Part shown: positions 2,085 to 62,230 of the stretch, one piece after another | How positions within the stretch are numbered: the first letter of the stretch is position 1 | How the letters are laid out: the number at the start of each line of letters is the position of its first letter | Assembly: GCF_003018115.1 (NCBI RefSeq) | Contig: NZ_CP027457.1 | DNA length: 64,000 nucleotides | Direction: 5' to 3' (one strand) | Origin: Escherichia coli | Lineage (GTDB): Bacteria; Pseudomonadota; Gammaproteobacteria; Enterobacterales; Enterobacteriaceae | The notes under the pieces: generated by a model | Told to the model about the DNA's origin: nothing | The model's input: only the letters and a program-made list of their open reading frames with translations | The model's database searches: none | Position numbers and translations under genes: made by a program

Positions 2085-2387
2085 TCATTGTGTACCCATT
2101 GATGTTCTTTTATATACCCTCAATACCCGTTTCATCGCGGCACTCTGGCGACACTCCTTAAAAATCAAATTCGTGCTCACCTTTCCTTCCCATTCTTCTC
2201 TGGTAGCGAACCGATAATACACCGTTCGCCAGACCTTACCATCAACGACCAGGATTCCTGCCCGCGCCATTTTAGCCGCAGCCTGATTTATGCTGGTTAC
2301 CGTTGCGCCTGTTACCGCGGCAACGTCCTGCGCACAGAATTTCTTATGAGTCCCCAGGTAATGAATAATTGCCTCTTTGCCCGTCAT
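2085..2387 (-). CDS. ren: Lambda Ren-like protein
   Basis: MTGKEAIIHYLGTH...AAKMARAGILVVDGKVWRTVYYRFATREE... is near-identical to lambda Ren as recalled; its start overlaps the P stop by 4 nt, as in lambda. Confidence 0.85.
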   Translation of the reverse strand: MTGKEAIIHYLGTHKKFCAQDVAAVTGATVTSINQAAAKMARAGILVVDGKVWRTVYYRFATREEWEGKVSTNLIFKECRQSAAMKRVLRVYKRTSMGTQ

Positions 2388-3085
2388 ACCCTTGCTCCTT
2401 TCAGCCCAAACTTAGCTTTGATTTCTGCGATCTTCGCCAGAGCCTGTGCACGATTTAGAGGTCTACCGCCCATGACAGGAAGTTGTTTTACTGGTTCAGG
2501 TATAGCCTCACCACGGTTAATTCGTGCGGTCATACAGGACAGTTCATCGGCAGCCTTGCGCCGTAATTCCGCGTCAGTCAACGCATTAGCCCGCATGTTC
2601 TGATACAGGTTGGTAACCAGCCAGTAGTGCGCGTTTGATTTCCACGGATAAGACTCTGCATCCGGATACAGCCCGCGCTTCCGGCAATACTCGTAAACCA
2701 TATCAACCAGCTCGCTGGCGTTTGGCAGCCCGGCGGTAACGGATGCTTCTTCCCGGCACCAGGCGACAAACTGCCCGGGTGATGGCAGGAATGGTCGATT
2801 CTGCCGACGGGCTACGCGCATTCCAGCGTTAACCTGTTCCATTGTGGTGATCCCGTTTTCCCGAAAAGCCAGCACCCACTGGCGGCGGATTTCGTTCAGT
2901 TCATTCTGGTCACGGTTAGCCAGGCTCGCCGGGAAAGTTGCCAGTAACTGGCTGAACACACCGTTGATGATCTGCGCTACCTGCTGTACCTGTGGCTTTT
3001 CGTCGTACTGTTCCGGCATGTTGTTGGCGATCCGACGCATCTGCTCACGGTCAAAGTTAACCATCTGTGCGGCGATGTTTTTCAT
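2384..3085 (-). CDS. P: Replication protein P (DnaB helicase loader), lambda P-like
   Basis: 233-aa translation MKNIAAQMVNFDREQMRRIANNMPEQYDEKPQVQQVAQIINGVF... matches lambda P over its full length as recalled. Confidence 0.9.
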   Translation of the reverse strand: MKNIAAQMVNFDREQMRRIANNMPEQYDEKPQVQQVAQIINGVFSQLLATFPASLANRDQNELNEIRRQWVLAFRENGITTMEQVNAGMRVARRQNRPFLPSPGQFVAWCREEASVTAGLPNASELVDMVYEYCRKRGLYPDAESYPWKSNAHYWLVTNLYQNMRANALTDAELRRKAADELSCMTARINRGEAIPEPVKQLPVMGGRPLNRAQALAKIAEIKAKFGLKGARV

Positions 3086-4101
3086 AGATCCACCCCGTAA
3101 ATCCAGTCAGTGTTTGTCAGGTCGAGTTTTGGTTTGCCGACTGTCACGCCAGCCTGTTGCTTGTTCCGGTTGATTTCGAGCTGGGTCCACTTGTCGCGGA
3201 GTTTGGCCGGACTCAGCACGTTACCGGACCAGAAGTTGTCCTGGCAGGCCCAGCGGAACAGTACACACATGTCGCGGTGGTTACGTCCATCACGTTCACG
3301 CATCAGACGGATATCGTTAGCCCACCCTGCAAAATTCGGTTTTCTGGCTGATGGCGCGATGGTCTTCACCATGTCAAACATCCACTCTGCGGCGGTCAGG
3401 TCTTCTGCTGTCCCCCACTTGCTGCCGCTCTGAATCGCAGCATCCGCTTTCACCACAGGAAGGTCGTTTTCTGGCAGGTCAGAGGATTCGCCAGAATTCT
3501 CGGACGAATAAGGTTTTATATTGTCTTTTGTTAGTTTGTCTTTTGTGTTTACCTGATTCGGGTAAGTGCCTTTACCTGATTTGGGTAAACTTTTCTTACC
3601 TGATTCAGGTAAATTTACCTCTTTCAGGTAAACTTTATTTTTCTTACCTGATTCGGGTAATTTTGACCATTCCCTGACCACATTATTAATGCCGATATTC
3701 CGCCCGCTCTGAATAAAAATCCCACGCTTTACCAGAACACTTTTTGCAGCAGAACACTTGTGCGGCAATATCCCGGTCAACTCGGAAAGTTGCTCGTTGC
3801 TCACCCAATCCAGTTTTTTATTAAAGCCATATGTTTTGCGCATGACAGCCAGGAAGACCAGAAGCTGGTGCTGTGTTAATCCGGCCAGCATTACAGCTTC
3901 CAGCAACTCATTTGCAATGCGCGTATAACCATCATCGAGATCTGCCACGCGCGGCTCCTTTTGTGCCGCATCCGGCACTGGAAAATTGAATATCTCAGCA
4001 GTGTTTGCCATAATTCCTCCCGCAATGAGTGTGTTACGATTTGCACCTGAAAGTCGGTTCTGTTGCCGCAGACCGACTTTCGCCATTTTTGAACCTGTCA
4101 T
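3082..4101 (-). CDS. O: Replication initiator O-like protein (lambda O-type N-terminal iteron-binding domain, divergent C-terminus)
   Basis: N-terminal VADLDDGYTRIANELLEAVMLAGLTQHQLLVFLAVMRKTYGFNK resembles lambda O; the gene contains the iteron array; the 4-nt overlap with P is typical. Confidence 0.85.
   Translation of the reverse strand: MTGSKMAKVGLRQQNRLSGANRNTLIAGGIMANTAEIFNFPVPDAAQKEPRVADLDDGYTRIANELLEAVMLAGLTQHQLLVFLAVMRKTYGFNKKLDWVSNEQLSELTGILPHKCSAAKSVLVKRGIFIQSGRNIGINNVVREWSKLPESGKKNKVYLKEVNLPESGKKSLPKSGKGTYPNQVNTKDKLTKDNIKPYSSENSGESSDLPENDLPVVKADAAIQSGSKWGTAEDLTAAEWMFDMVKTIAPSARKPNFAGWANDIRLMRERDGRNHRDMCVLFRWACQDNFWSGNVLSPAKLRDKWTQLEINRNKQQAGVTVGKPKLDLTNTDWIYGVDL
3550..3660. repeat. 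Replication origin iterons: five copies of about 16 bp TACCTGATTCGGGTAA (each TACC-N8-GGTA dyad) inside the O gene, next to an AT-rich stretch (about 3490-3545)
   Basis: Directly visible copies starting near 3550, 3573, 3597, 3616 and 3645; the same arrangement as ori-lambda inside O. Confidence 0.65.
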
Positions 4102-4643
4102 ATTGCCCCCAGCATGGTGGTGACCATCGCCATCAATGGACCAGCCAGATCTGGGTCCACTCGAAACATCGACACAATGCCTTCACTCATCTCCTTCAGT
4201 TTCTGGTGGCGTGGTGCGTTGAGAATGACCGCCTGCTTTGCCTCACTGAGTTCCTTTTCCATTTCAGCCAGCCGAGCCATGAAGCTATCCTGCTCAACCA
4301 GGTGGCCGCGATATTCCAGCGGTAGTACCGCCAGAATTGCCGGGGTCAGTTCACGCACGTTATTTCGGTATTTTTCAGAATCGAATTTGTTATCGAGGAA
4401 GCGGAACAGCTTCTGGCGTGCACGACTGACATCATCAGGAAAATCGATGGTGCCGCCGCCCTGTGCTCGATACTCATTCACAATGAGTGCGGCAACTACA
4501 TCCTGATTATCTTCAGCAGACCAGGCGCGGACGGCATCACGAATTTTTTCGTGGCCTGGCACCTGTTTTATTTGAGAACGATTTATCACCGCAGTCGGGC
4601 TAAATCCGCTAGTCTGTTGGTATGTAAGTGGTTGCATAATCAT
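4098..4643 (-). CDS. CII-position regulatory protein, possibly YdaT/CP76-family (181 aa)
   Basis: Occupies the cII position between cro-like and O; motifs EYRAQGGG and LTPAILAVLPLEY recall the YdaT/phage CII (CP76) family. Family assignment is from memory only. Confidence 0.5.
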   Translation of the reverse strand: MIMQPLTYQQTSGFSPTAVINRSQIKQVPGHEKIRDAVRAWSAEDNQDVVAALIVNEYRAQGGGTIDFPDDVSRARQKLFRFLDNKFDSEKYRNNVRELTPAILAVLPLEYRGHLVEQDSFMARLAEMEKELSEAKQAVILNAPRHQKLKEMSEGIVSMFRVDPDLAGPLMAMVTTMLGAI

Positions 4644-4667
4644 CGCCTTATCAGTTAACGCCGCAGA

Positions 4668-4895
4668 TTAGGCGGCAGAATTACTCGCGTTAAACAATGG
4701 TGCGAGGTCGGGACGAATATCTGCTGGCTTAATCTTTCCACCAGTGGCTGAGACAATTTTCATTACATAGCGGGCATCAATTCCGCCACCGTGTAGCCAA
4801 CGCCAAACAGTGGGCTGGGCTACACCGCATAGATCTGCCAGTCGTTTTTGACTACCTGTAATACTGATTGCGAGTTGAATGGTTTGATTTGTCAT
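4668..4895 (-). CDS. Cro-like HTH regulator (YdaS-like), 75 aa from the ATG
   Basis: Helix-turn-helix motif QKRLADLCGVAQPTVWRWL; divergent from the cI-like gene; AGGA 8 nt upstream of the ATG at 4895 (track ORF starts at a TTG at 4901). Confidence 0.6.
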   Translation of the reverse strand: MTNQTIQLAISITGSQKRLADLCGVAQPTVWRWLHGGGIDARYVMKIVSATGGKIKPADIRPDLAPLFNASNSAA

Positions 4896-5005
4896 TATCA
4901 ATTCCTATTGGTATTACAATGAATGGATAATAGCAATGCGTATTAACCATGGCAATAGCAAAACGTGTTTTGACCATCAATACGCAAGCGTATAAATTAA
5001 AACTT
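4896..5005. promoter_or_regulatory. Immunity-region divergent promoter/operator region (OR-like), with dyad sites ATAATAGCAATGCGTATTAA (about 4927-4946) and GCAATAGCAAAACGTGTTTTG (about 4952-4972)
   Basis: Intergenic between divergent cro-like and cI-like genes; dyad-symmetric repeats sharing AATAGCAA with the OL-like region at 7530-7577. Confidence 0.45.
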
Positions 5006-5821: not shown

Positions 5822-6844
5822 ATGAAAGATAACAGACAAAAAGTCGTTCATTATAAAAAAGCAGTAATCCCACACAGCAAATCATCATTACAAAACATAC
5901 TACTTAGTATTATAGGTGAGGGCGGCGTTGCAGAAAAAGTACTTAGTAGACAAGAAAAAATAACACCTTCAGATGAAAATTCGGGGTATCGTTTCTTAAA
6001 TAAAAGCGACACATACAAAACTATACTTTTTGGGCAACTGGTTTTATTTGAAAAAGACAAAAGCCAGTCTCTATTAGAGCTTAGTGATAATGTTAAATTT
6101 TATGACATTAACTCCATCACGTCTAATGATATAATTATTGATGGAGATAAACGTAGTGACAAAAAAAGAGAGTTTGTAGATTCAATTTTATATTTTGGTG
6201 TACTAAACAACCATGTCATGATCGTTCAATCCACATCGCTTCGAGCAAGGGAGCTTGAGGCGCATTTGAATTGGCTAATTAATACATTCACAGATGAAAA
6301 AGAATCTGTGTTAATGCTTCAAGATAAGCCATCCGAAGAAACGATGAAAAAAATGGAGAAAGCACCAGCCAAGAGCATAAAAATTGGTGGATTACCCATT
6401 ACTTCAGAAGTTAAAAATTCAGAGAACCAAACACCCTCCTTTTCAAATGGTTCGGTGAAGACAATAAAATACCGCCCAATAGGGAAAGGAGGTGCGCTAC
6501 TAAAAGCATTTTTTGGCGATAACTGGGCAAATGATATAAACATTAAAGATTCATTAGATGAGGCCAATTTACAAGTAAGCCTCGAGATTACATACTTCAG
6601 AAAAACAAATGATAGCGGTCAAGCTGTTATAGACAGTATTGCTACCTCACTACGACATCTAGATGAGGATGATATTAGCATCAAACTTCAAGGCGGTGGG
6701 GAAATAACGGGAAAAGAGATAAAATTATCCGGAAAAATTAGCGTTGAACATAACAATGGCATTATTGATGAAAATGATTTATTCTTAAAAATGCATAAGT
6801 GGCTGTTCTCAAAACTTGATGCCGGAGAATTGGTTGCAAAATAA
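5822..6844 (+). CDS. Hypothetical 340-aa soluble protein, first gene of a rexA-position two-gene module (candidate phage-exclusion component)
   Basis: Long ORF in a markedly AT-rich segment immediately downstream of cI on the same strand; no family recognised by eye; no predicted TM segment. Confidence 0.6.
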   Translation: MKDNRQKVVHYKKAVIPHSKSSLQNILLSIIGEGGVAEKVLSRQEKITPSDENSGYRFLNKSDTYKTILFGQLVLFEKDKSQSLLELSDNVKFYDINSITSNDIIIDGDKRSDKKREFVDSILYFGVLNNHVMIVQSTSLRARELEAHLNWLINTFTDEKESVLMLQDKPSEETMKKMEKAPAKSIKIGGLPITSEVKNSENQTPSFSNGSVKTIKYRPIGKGGALLKAFFGDNWANDINIKDSLDEANLQVSLEITYFRKTNDSGQAVIDSIATSLRHLDEDDISIKLQGGGEITGKEIKLSGKISVEHNNGIIDENDLFLKMHKWLFSKLDAGELVAK

Positions 6845-6865: not shown

Positions 6866-7372
6866 ATGAAATCGAACATCATCCACCTTATTGGTATGTT
6901 GGTCTTCTATTTTGCTGGTTACTTTTTGTTCAAGTTAGCATTGGGCTATATTACACCGGGTGTTGTCCTAACAGCTCCGTGGGCTGTGGTTGGACTCATG
7001 CAATTGCCATTATCATATTGTATACAAGCCATTTTTAAGGCAAATGAGGCCAATGACCACTCGTCTTTAACCCCTAGTGAGGTTAGGCGATTAGTGCCAA
7101 TAGTCAAATCCAAGAGACTGAAATTGGTTTTATTATTAGCTTTCTATGTATTTTCAACTTTGTTTGTAATCTTGGGGTTAATAGCAAGCACAAATGATCA
7201 AGCCCTACTCTTCAGGGTCTTAAAAATTTCAGGTGGATTACTCTTTATTTCTCTCTATACCAGTGTATTCGTTCATAAAATAATGGTTGAGCTTCAAGAG
7301 TTTAAAGCGTTATTAAACCGAAGAGAATCAGAGAAGAAGGAAAGAGAGTCACTCCTTGATAGATTAAAATGA
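6866..7372 (+). CDS. Hypothetical 168-aa membrane protein with four predicted TM helices and a charged C-terminal tail, second gene of the rexB-position module
   Basis: Hydrophobic stretches IIHLIGMLVFYFAGYFLFKLALGYI, VVLTAPWAVVGLMQLPLSYCIQAIF, LKLVLLLAFYVFSTLFVILGLIAS and GGLLFISLYTSVFVHKIMV; RBS AAGGAGG upstream; 21-nt gap from the upstream gene. Confidence 0.6.
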   Translation: MKSNIIHLIGMLVFYFAGYFLFKLALGYITPGVVLTAPWAVVGLMQLPLSYCIQAIFKANEANDHSSLTPSEVRRLVPIVKSKRLKLVLLLAFYVFSTLFVILGLIASTNDQALLFRVLKISGGLLFISLYTSVFVHKIMVELQEFKALLNRRESEKKERESLLDRLK

Positions 7373-12934: not shown

Positions 12935-13011
12935 TGGCGCGCCCTGCAGGATTCGAACCTGCGGCCCACGACTTAGAAGGTCGTTGCTCTATCCAACTGA
13001 GCTAAGGGCGC
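12935..13011 (-). tRNA. argU: tRNA-Arg (anticodon UCU)
   Basis: Reverse complement reads GCGCCCTTAGCTCAGTTGGATAGAGCAACGACCTTCTAAGTCGTGGGCCGCAGGTTCGAATCCTGCAGGGCGCGCCA; cloverleaf with TCT anticodon and encoded CCA. Confidence 0.95.
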
Positions 13012-34422: not shown

Positions 34423-34464
34423 GTCATACCACTCGCCTGATTATTTTTAGCTATGTTGGATTTT

Positions 34465-34491
34465 GCCACGGTTTATACCGTGGCTTTTTTT
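34465..34491 (+). terminator. Rho-independent terminator after allE (GCCACGG-TTTATA-CCGTGGC then T7)
   Basis: GC-rich hairpin followed by TTTTTTT, read directly. Confidence 0.7.
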
Positions 34492-34499
34492 GTAACATT

Positions 34500-34605
34500 G
34501 CCTGATGCGCTTCGCTTATCAGGCCTACATGATCTCTGCAATATATAGAATTTGCGCGATTTTCAGGAAGGATATAGTACTCATGCCGCATCCGGCATGA
34601 GTACT
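34500..34605. repeat. REP-type palindromic elements, including the perfect 13-bp-arm palindrome AGTACTCATGCCG-CATC-CGGCATGAGTACT
   Basis: REP-like GCCTGATGCG...ATCAGGC unit and perfect inverted repeat between convergent allE and glxK. Confidence 0.55.

Positions 34606-62086: not shown

Positions 62087-62230
<144 letters not shown>

Follow-up and report, generated by a model that had tools for sequence, protein, structure and literature searches.

A probable replication origin of the ori-lambda plan, with iterons unlike those of lambda, inside the O gene of an Escherichia coli prophage

The first 13.1 kb of the 64-kb stretch of E. coli DNA analysed here (hereafter the window) matches phage Perceval with 97 % identity across 84 % of its length, and comparable matches are found to PhiR68_2, 4A7, 4C10, 1W and 3W. 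Two minus-strand genes of this region, O and P, have intact frames and flank the array described below (Table 1). The O frame matches the Pfam family Phage_rep_O (PF04492, 3.3e-33) over residues 51-145 of its longest, 339-aa form, and the P ORF matches Phage_lambda_P (PF06992, 8.2e-62). The genes upstream of O, in the sense of transcription, are one that is YdaT-like, another that is YdaS/Cro-like and a third, divergent one whose product is a cI-like repressor containing an S24 peptidase domain. Since the pR-like promoter is located upstream of the cro-like gene, the ydaT-like gene, O and P, transcription from it would cross the array. On the other side, P is followed by a ren-like ORF and then, at 1685-2071 on the minus strand, by an ORF that we take from its translation to be emrE; a QacE/EmrE-type gene occupies the equivalent position in phage 4A7. 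The argU integration site and the emrE cargo are presumably those of DLP12, the cryptic prophage of strain K-12. Because emrE comes directly after ren and the tRNA-Arg(TCT) gene adjoins an integrase-sized ORF, the prophage sits at the integration site of DLP12 and has the same cargo gene. We read this layout as that of a lambdoid prophage which is integrated at argU and, while related to DLP12, has kept O and P intact; phages Perceval and 4A7 are its close relatives.

Two further ORFs on the plus strand, 5822-6844 (340 aa) and 6866-7372 (168 aa, hydrophobic), come immediately after the cI-like repressor gene, which has the same orientation, and are placed as rexA and rexB are in lambda. Neither has a match in Pfam or PADLOC, and the pair could represent an uncharacterised exclusion or defence system expressed in the lysogen. 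Within the chromosomal DNA of the window, and unrelated to the origin, Rfam matches to the enterobacterial small RNAs STnc480, ES036 and naRNA4 are found at 34429-34563 (minus strand) and 62137-62214 (plus strand).

The start of O deserves a comment. Upstream of the ATG at 4011, which is homologous to that of lambda, the frame stays open for 30 more codons up to an ATG at 4101 (ORF 3082-4101, 339 aa), and public records annotate O in both the 309-aa and the 339-aa forms. The sequence GGGAGGA stands just before ATG 4011, and the 309-aa form seems more likely to be the true product. ATG 4101 overlaps the stop codon of the ydaT-like gene as ATGA, and the upstream extension contains, on the plus strand, a strong hairpin (4049-4081, -24.6 kcal/mol, z = -3.8) followed by a T-run (4086-4090). 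Antisense to the O start codon there is also a promoter-like TTGAAT-17-CATAAT with an upstream TG, a layout that we assume to be the same as that of the lambda pO promoter. The plus-strand segment 3986-4090 could yield an oop-like antisense RNA of ~70 nt, beside which the gene upstream of O is YdaT-like and not cII. Rfam gave no match for this candidate or elsewhere in the O region, and a simple terminator scan of 3000-5000 made no call, at the candidate or in the rest of the interval.

Table 1. Positions of the array and of the surrounding features in the window
Feature	Position	Strand	Remarks
ITN0	3644..3660	-	TTACCCGAATCAGGTAA (O sense); extra copy, 29 bp upstream of the canonical array
ITN1	3615..3631	-	TTACCTGAAAGAGGTAA; centre the most divergent of the five; aligned to lambda ITN1
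ITN2	3596..3612	-	TTACCTGAATCAGGTAA; perfect 17-bp palindrome (8+1+8); aligned to lambda ITN2
ITN3	3572..3588	-	TTACCCAAATCAGGTAA; aligned to lambda ITN3
ITN4	3549..3565	-	TTACCCGAATCAGGTAA; aligned to lambda ITN4; ACACAAAAGACA directly after
AT-rich tract, presumed DNA-unwinding element	3500..3548	-	49 bp; downstream of the iterons in O sense
O gene, replication initiator	3082..4011	-	309 aa from the lambda-homologous ATG 4011
Origin-binding N-terminal domain of O, predicted winged helix	3667..3951	-	predicted recognition helix PHKCSAAKSVLVKR
C-terminal half of O, lambda-type	3082..3499	-	P-interacting domain in lambda
P gene, lambda-type helicase loader	2384..3085	-	233 aa; start overlaps the O stop
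pR-like promoter	4927..4955	-	TTGCCA-17-TATTAT, TG upstream; from a consensus scan whose total matches were not above shuffles
tRNA-Arg(TCT)	12935-13011	-	adjoins an integrase-sized ORF

The array consists of five copies of a 17-bp dyad at window 3549-3660, with the consensus TTACCyGAATCrGGTAA when read in the sense of O. Each unit has the form TTACC-N7-GGTAA, the outer 5+5 bases being the same in 5/5 copies. A pattern search of the whole 64 kb that tolerated up to three mismatches returned the five sites of the array and no others; 0.09 matches were expected by chance, and the observed count was reached in 0/100 shuffles. The original prediction, made from the sequence alone, had announced five iterons of about 16 bp inside the O gene. 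Their number and their location within the coding sequence are borne out, the array lying between the Phage_rep_O domain and the lambda-type C-terminal half within ORF 3082-4101; the unit is, however, 17 bp long. Likewise, the predicted spacing of 23-24 bp is right as a mean and not as a constant, because in plus-strand order the copies follow each other at 23, 24, 19 and 29 bp (29/19/24/23 in O sense). A repeated linker of the PESGKK type, also foreseen, is indeed encoded, since the peptide across the iterons reads ...KLPESGKKNKVYLKEVNLPESGKKSLPKSGKGTYPNQVNTKDK.... The same is true of the AT-rich flank, with a GC content of ~0.32 over 3500-3559 as against 0.5-0.6 on either side. A repeat search finds two ACAAAAGACAA repeats inside this tract, and it is also here that the sequence switches to the lambda type.

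The protein expected to read these sites was modelled as well. In an AlphaFold model of O residues 1-130, of moderate confidence (mean pLDDT 74, core 80-93), a long helix is followed by a winged-helix unit, with the topology H-H-beta-H-H-beta hairpin. Foldseek matched this model only to dimeric winged-helix regulators of the CRP/FNR and MarR families, and since these matches are weak (E at least 0.008, TM ~0.4), they justify no more than a generic winged-helix assignment. A sequence search of the PDB with O gave no match, i.e., no solved O structure is detectable by sequence.

Over its full length, the 309-aa O protein is 67 % identical to O of phage 434/lambda, but this average hides two very different parts. 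The N-terminal domain is ~45 % identical to that of lambda while the proteins are near-identical from YSSENSGESSD onward. The nucleotide sequences behave similarly: identity to lambda is about 40-70 % (~55 % overall) across the iterons and the N-terminal domain. In the AT-rich tract it is higher, at 70-87 %, and it amounts to 87-100 % from about 3520 to the O stop; taken together, the sequence from the tract onward exceeds 90 %. The last four repeats align without gaps with ITN1-4 as annotated in phage 434, and both arrays end in ACACAAAAGACA. Given this alignment, the array therefore comprises a canonical set of four iterons plus one additional copy 29 bp upstream.

The architecture of ori-lambda, whose repeats are the binding sites of O, is well described (PMC5043065). 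The original prediction had proposed a comparison with this and other lambdoid origins, which shows that the position of the array is shared and that the iteron sequence is not. In common with the lambda/434 origin are the location within the O gene, the 17-bp dyad geometry, a homologous AT-rich tract with the same motif, and a near-identical O C-terminal domain and P protein. The spacing of the four canonical sites, 19/24/23 bp, differs by little from the 20/24/23 of ori-lambda. In contrast, the lambda iteron consensus ATCCCTCAAAACGAGGGA is not matched by the iterons of the window, the half-sites being TTACCy as opposed to TCCCTC and the aligned columns ~55 % identical. In addition, the A-tract (CAAAAC) at the centre of the lambda iteron has no equivalent in the window, and lambda with its four sites lacks a counterpart of ITN0.

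These observations lead us to regard the array as very probably the replication origin of a lambdoid prophage, built like ori-lambda with sites unlike those of lambda. The ori-lambda-like origin that had been predicted is thus supported by the comparison on several counts, namely the position, the differing sites, the divergence of O that goes with them and the conservation at the DNA level discussed below. By homology with lambda, the following sequence of events would be expected. Winged-helix dimers formed by the N-terminal domain of O would bind each dyad through the TTACC/GGTAA arms, and the five bound dimers would come together in an O-some, bending the DNA. On a supercoiled template, the O-some would then melt the adjacent AT-rich tract (PMC5043065, PMC7466680). 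The lambda-type C-terminal domain of O would recruit P bound to DnaB, host chaperones would release the helicase, and rightward transcription from the pR-like promoter would cross the origin and activate it.

How this origin relates to others of its family was examined in a sample of 14 O/gp18 homologues, which fall into ~8 recognition-helix/iteron types (Table 2). The sampled homologues carry type-specific dyad repeats at the equivalent spot, usually with 20/24/23 spacing, as seen in lambda, P22, HK97 and the Yersinia and Klebsiella phages. In a scan for the AT-rich-tract motif after the last iteron, it was found in lambda, P22, HK97, the Stx phage and the Klebsiella and Salmonella relatives and was absent in mEp237; the same scan left SEN34, Eho49, Gifsy-1 and mEp043 unplaced. 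As far as can be judged from aligned sequences, the repeat tracks the predicted recognition helix across O types. An alignment of N-terminal domains gives PHKCSAAKS for the window, PTKCSTAKN for P22 and VKRCNEAKL for lambda at this helix, and the group with TTAGC repeats has HTH(C/V), e.g., HTHVCAAKR in HK97. That different O-like proteins bind different iterons inside their own genes has been described (PMC8022706).

Table 2. Repeats at the equivalent position in other O types; those of SEN34, Eho49, mEp237 and Gifsy-1 come from a general repeat search and not from the iteron-register scan
Phage	Repeat	Copies
lambda/434	TCCCTCAAAACGAGGGA	4
Stx phage P27	lambda-type	6; spacing 20, 19, 20, 24, 23 bp
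P22	TTTACCAGATCGGTAAA	4
HK97, a Yersinia phage, a Klebsiella phage	TTAGCCAAGTCGGCTAA	4
SEN34, Erwinia Eho49	TTAGCGGAAGTTGCTAA	3 found
mEp043	TGTCACCAAAACGGTGACA	3-4
Gifsy-1	ATCCCCGAAAACGGGGA	several
mEp237 (phi80-like by annotation)	TTCCCGAAAACGGGAA	at least 3

Among the other systems, the Stx-phage origins (P27, 933W) resemble that of the window in that a canonical four-site array is extended upstream and the O linker is correspondingly longer. However, their iterons are of the lambda type and bound by lambda O, whereas the sites of the window differ in sequence, and they have six iterons in total while the window has only one extra copy and its relatives 5-8 copies. In the Stx phages, the extra iterons are reported to be weakly bound and yet essential (PMC7466680). 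The closest N-terminal domain to have been studied experimentally is that of P22 gp18, 64 % identical over residues 19-115. The P22 origin lies inside gene 18 and contains four ~20-bp repeats (PMC8022706). It shares with the window a related TTACC/GGTAA half-site and ACAAAAGACAAT repeats downstream, in addition to the spacing already mentioned. Its half-sites, however, are 2 bp closer together, it lacks a fifth copy, and the C-terminal domain of gp18 pairs with gp12, a DnaB-type helicase, whereas O of the window is paired with P. More distantly, iteron plasmid origins (pSC101, R6K, RK2, P1) also have arrays of sites for winged-helix initiators beside an AT-rich unwinding element (PMC5043065). 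Plasmid iterons are nevertheless usually direct repeats, bound by monomers and located outside the rep gene, unlike the dyads of the window, which lie within the gene of the initiator.

The specificity of its own with which the origin had been credited holds relative to lambda, but it is less clear-cut with respect to P22 (TTTACC) and HK97 (TTAGCC), since the half-site is close to both. The array could be an origin without private specificity, with an O protein that cross-reacts with iterons of the P22 type (TTTACC-N5-GGTAAA) or the HK97 type (TTAGCC-N5-GGCTAA). Its half-sites are indeed one base away from those of HK97 and shifted by 1 bp per half-site from those of P22, and the resemblance to the gp18 N-terminal domain points in the same direction. 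On the other hand, the three recognition helices quoted above for the window, P22 and HK97 differ from one another, a 2-bp change in half-site separation compared to P22 should matter to a dimer, and the arms are invariant within the iteron group of the window. We therefore consider such cross-reaction unlikely.

The module is very widespread. In a phage collection, the origin fragment was matched at a coverage of at least 80 % by 15 E. coli and 6 Klebsiella phage records, and at the same coverage the O N-terminus together with the origin was present in 2295/5426 complete E. coli genomes (~42 %), in up to five places per genome. The corresponding O protein cluster at 90 % identity has 7825 members, all of them named just "replication protein". 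Intact relatives have 5, 7 or 8 iteron copies and differ by in-frame units of 24 or 48 bp. For example, in-frame duplications of 24 bp or 48 bp have expanded the array to 7 or 8 copies in two Salmonella loci (L018, L020) and one of E. coli (L021), and each expansion step lengthens the O linker by a unit of the LPESGKKS type. Recombination between iterons has also produced deletions, of 23 bp (one repeat) in E. coli MS8324 (L014) and of 95 bp in E. coli PRO_A-1504 (L015). The latter corresponds exactly to the distance from ITN0 to ITN4 and fuses the two copies. Both deletions are out of frame, both O genes are annotated as frameshifted pseudogenes, and such deletions were seen only in O pseudogenes. 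Since the inter-iteron deletions in L014 and L015 shift the O frame, the array is a deletion hotspot in decaying prophages.

Decay of this kind raises the possibility that the window contains a genuine origin which has fallen silent in a prophage as defective as DLP12 of K-12. The integration site and cargo gene are presumably those of this cryptic element. Many E. coli copies have decayed, O being frameshifted in the two strains just mentioned and truncated in EDL933, and the late genes of the prophage fall outside the 64-kb window. Nevertheless, open frames are retained by O and P, by the cro-like gene, by the cI-like gene (S24 peptidase domain included) and by the integrase ORF, and the 13-kb region shows the near-identity to phage Perceval given above. 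Moreover, 15 sequenced phage genomes, several of them recorded with laboratory E. coli hosts, have identical iterons and an O protein ~97 % identical. Because the same module is found in these genomes, the origin is likely to be active, and we judge a silent relic to be quite improbable.

An origin should be constrained as DNA and not only as coding sequence. To look at this, eight genes with this iteron type were compared (the window, 4A7, two Klebsiella phages, two E. coli prophages and two Salmonella prophages), which share 75-99 % nucleotide identity in their N-terminal coding regions. In the iteron arms, 2/50 columns vary, and none of the 14 third-codon positions does. The corresponding figures are 108/351 and 68/117 for the N-terminal coding region and 10/25 and 4/9 for the spacers; the third-codon difference between the arms and the N-terminal region is significant (Fisher p = 1.5e-5). 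The iteron centres and the spacers are free to vary among the eight relatives. Because the third-codon positions are invariant in the arms and mostly variable in the adjacent coding sequence, the iteron DNA itself is under selection, and on this comparison coding constraint alone does not explain the conservation of the arms, to which gene conversion homogenising the repeats could also contribute. It is accordingly very improbable that the repeats are kept for the protein, with an LPESGKK linker under amino-acid selection and the DNA repeats as a by-product: the repeats do form part of the translated frame, and intact genes change their copy number only in frame, but selection on the linker leaves the dyad symmetry (perfect 17-bp palindrome included) and the invariant third-codon positions of the arms unexplained, the dyad arrays of other O types encode unrelated peptides at the same place, and the equivalent repeats of lambda are O-binding sites (PMC5043065).

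The unit formed by the N-terminal domain of O, the iterons and the AT-rich tract occurs in different genetic contexts. Its partners are P and a lambda-type C-terminus in the window, in 4A7 and in the Salmonella prophages, and another C-terminus with a loader of the DnaC/IstB type in Klebsiella GZ7 and two E. coli prophages. In the Klebsiella phages, the similarity to the window stops right after the AT-rich tract. The N-terminal domain, the iterons and the AT-rich tract are one exchangeable specificity module. This agrees with the classical division of O into an origin-specific N-terminal half and a loader-specific C-terminal half, which is due to Furth and Yates 1978 and Wickner and Zahn 1986 as cited in PMC6022878.

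Some further ideas are put forward jointly and tentatively, with more chance of being wrong than right. The array may be tunable, each change in the number of O-binding sites being accompanied by one in the length of the O linker. ITN0 may serve as an auxiliary or regulatory site, in the manner of the extra iterons of the Stx phages. Finally, TTACC half-sites 2 bp wider apart than in P22 would, if this reading is true, amount to a natural experiment in retargeting a dimeric winged-helix initiator.

The kind of element described here is textbook material, a further member of the family of lambdoid O-iteron origins that introduces no new principle. Nevertheless, the origin was unannotated in every database record inspected for this module, and the literature searched yielded neither an occurrence of the iteron string nor binding or replication data for this iteron type. 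An identification of 284-aa relatives with YdaU of the K-12 Rac prophage (oriJ) was rejected, since YdaU belongs to the DUF1376 family and is no homologue of O. Phage 82 presumably has type-specific iterons, possibly five, and an O C-terminus interchangeable with that of lambda, and we take the DLP12-type prophages to be related to it. In view of this relationship, the window may carry the classical phage 82 origin sequenced in 1979-81, which was reportedly described by Moore et al. (1979, 1981), Grosschedl and Hobom (1979) and Furth and Yates (1978). For phage 82, the phage collection contained no record matching the origin, and no sequence-level description was found in the literature within reach, which did not extend to the papers of the 1980s.

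Coordinates and a consensus are now at hand for one of the commonest lambdoid replication modules, one that reaches O157:H7 as well as prophages of Klebsiella and Salmonella. They can help to annotate prophages and to predict whether those residing in the same cell will be incompatible in replication or activate one another, and they provide comparative material on the co-evolution of O proteins and their sites.
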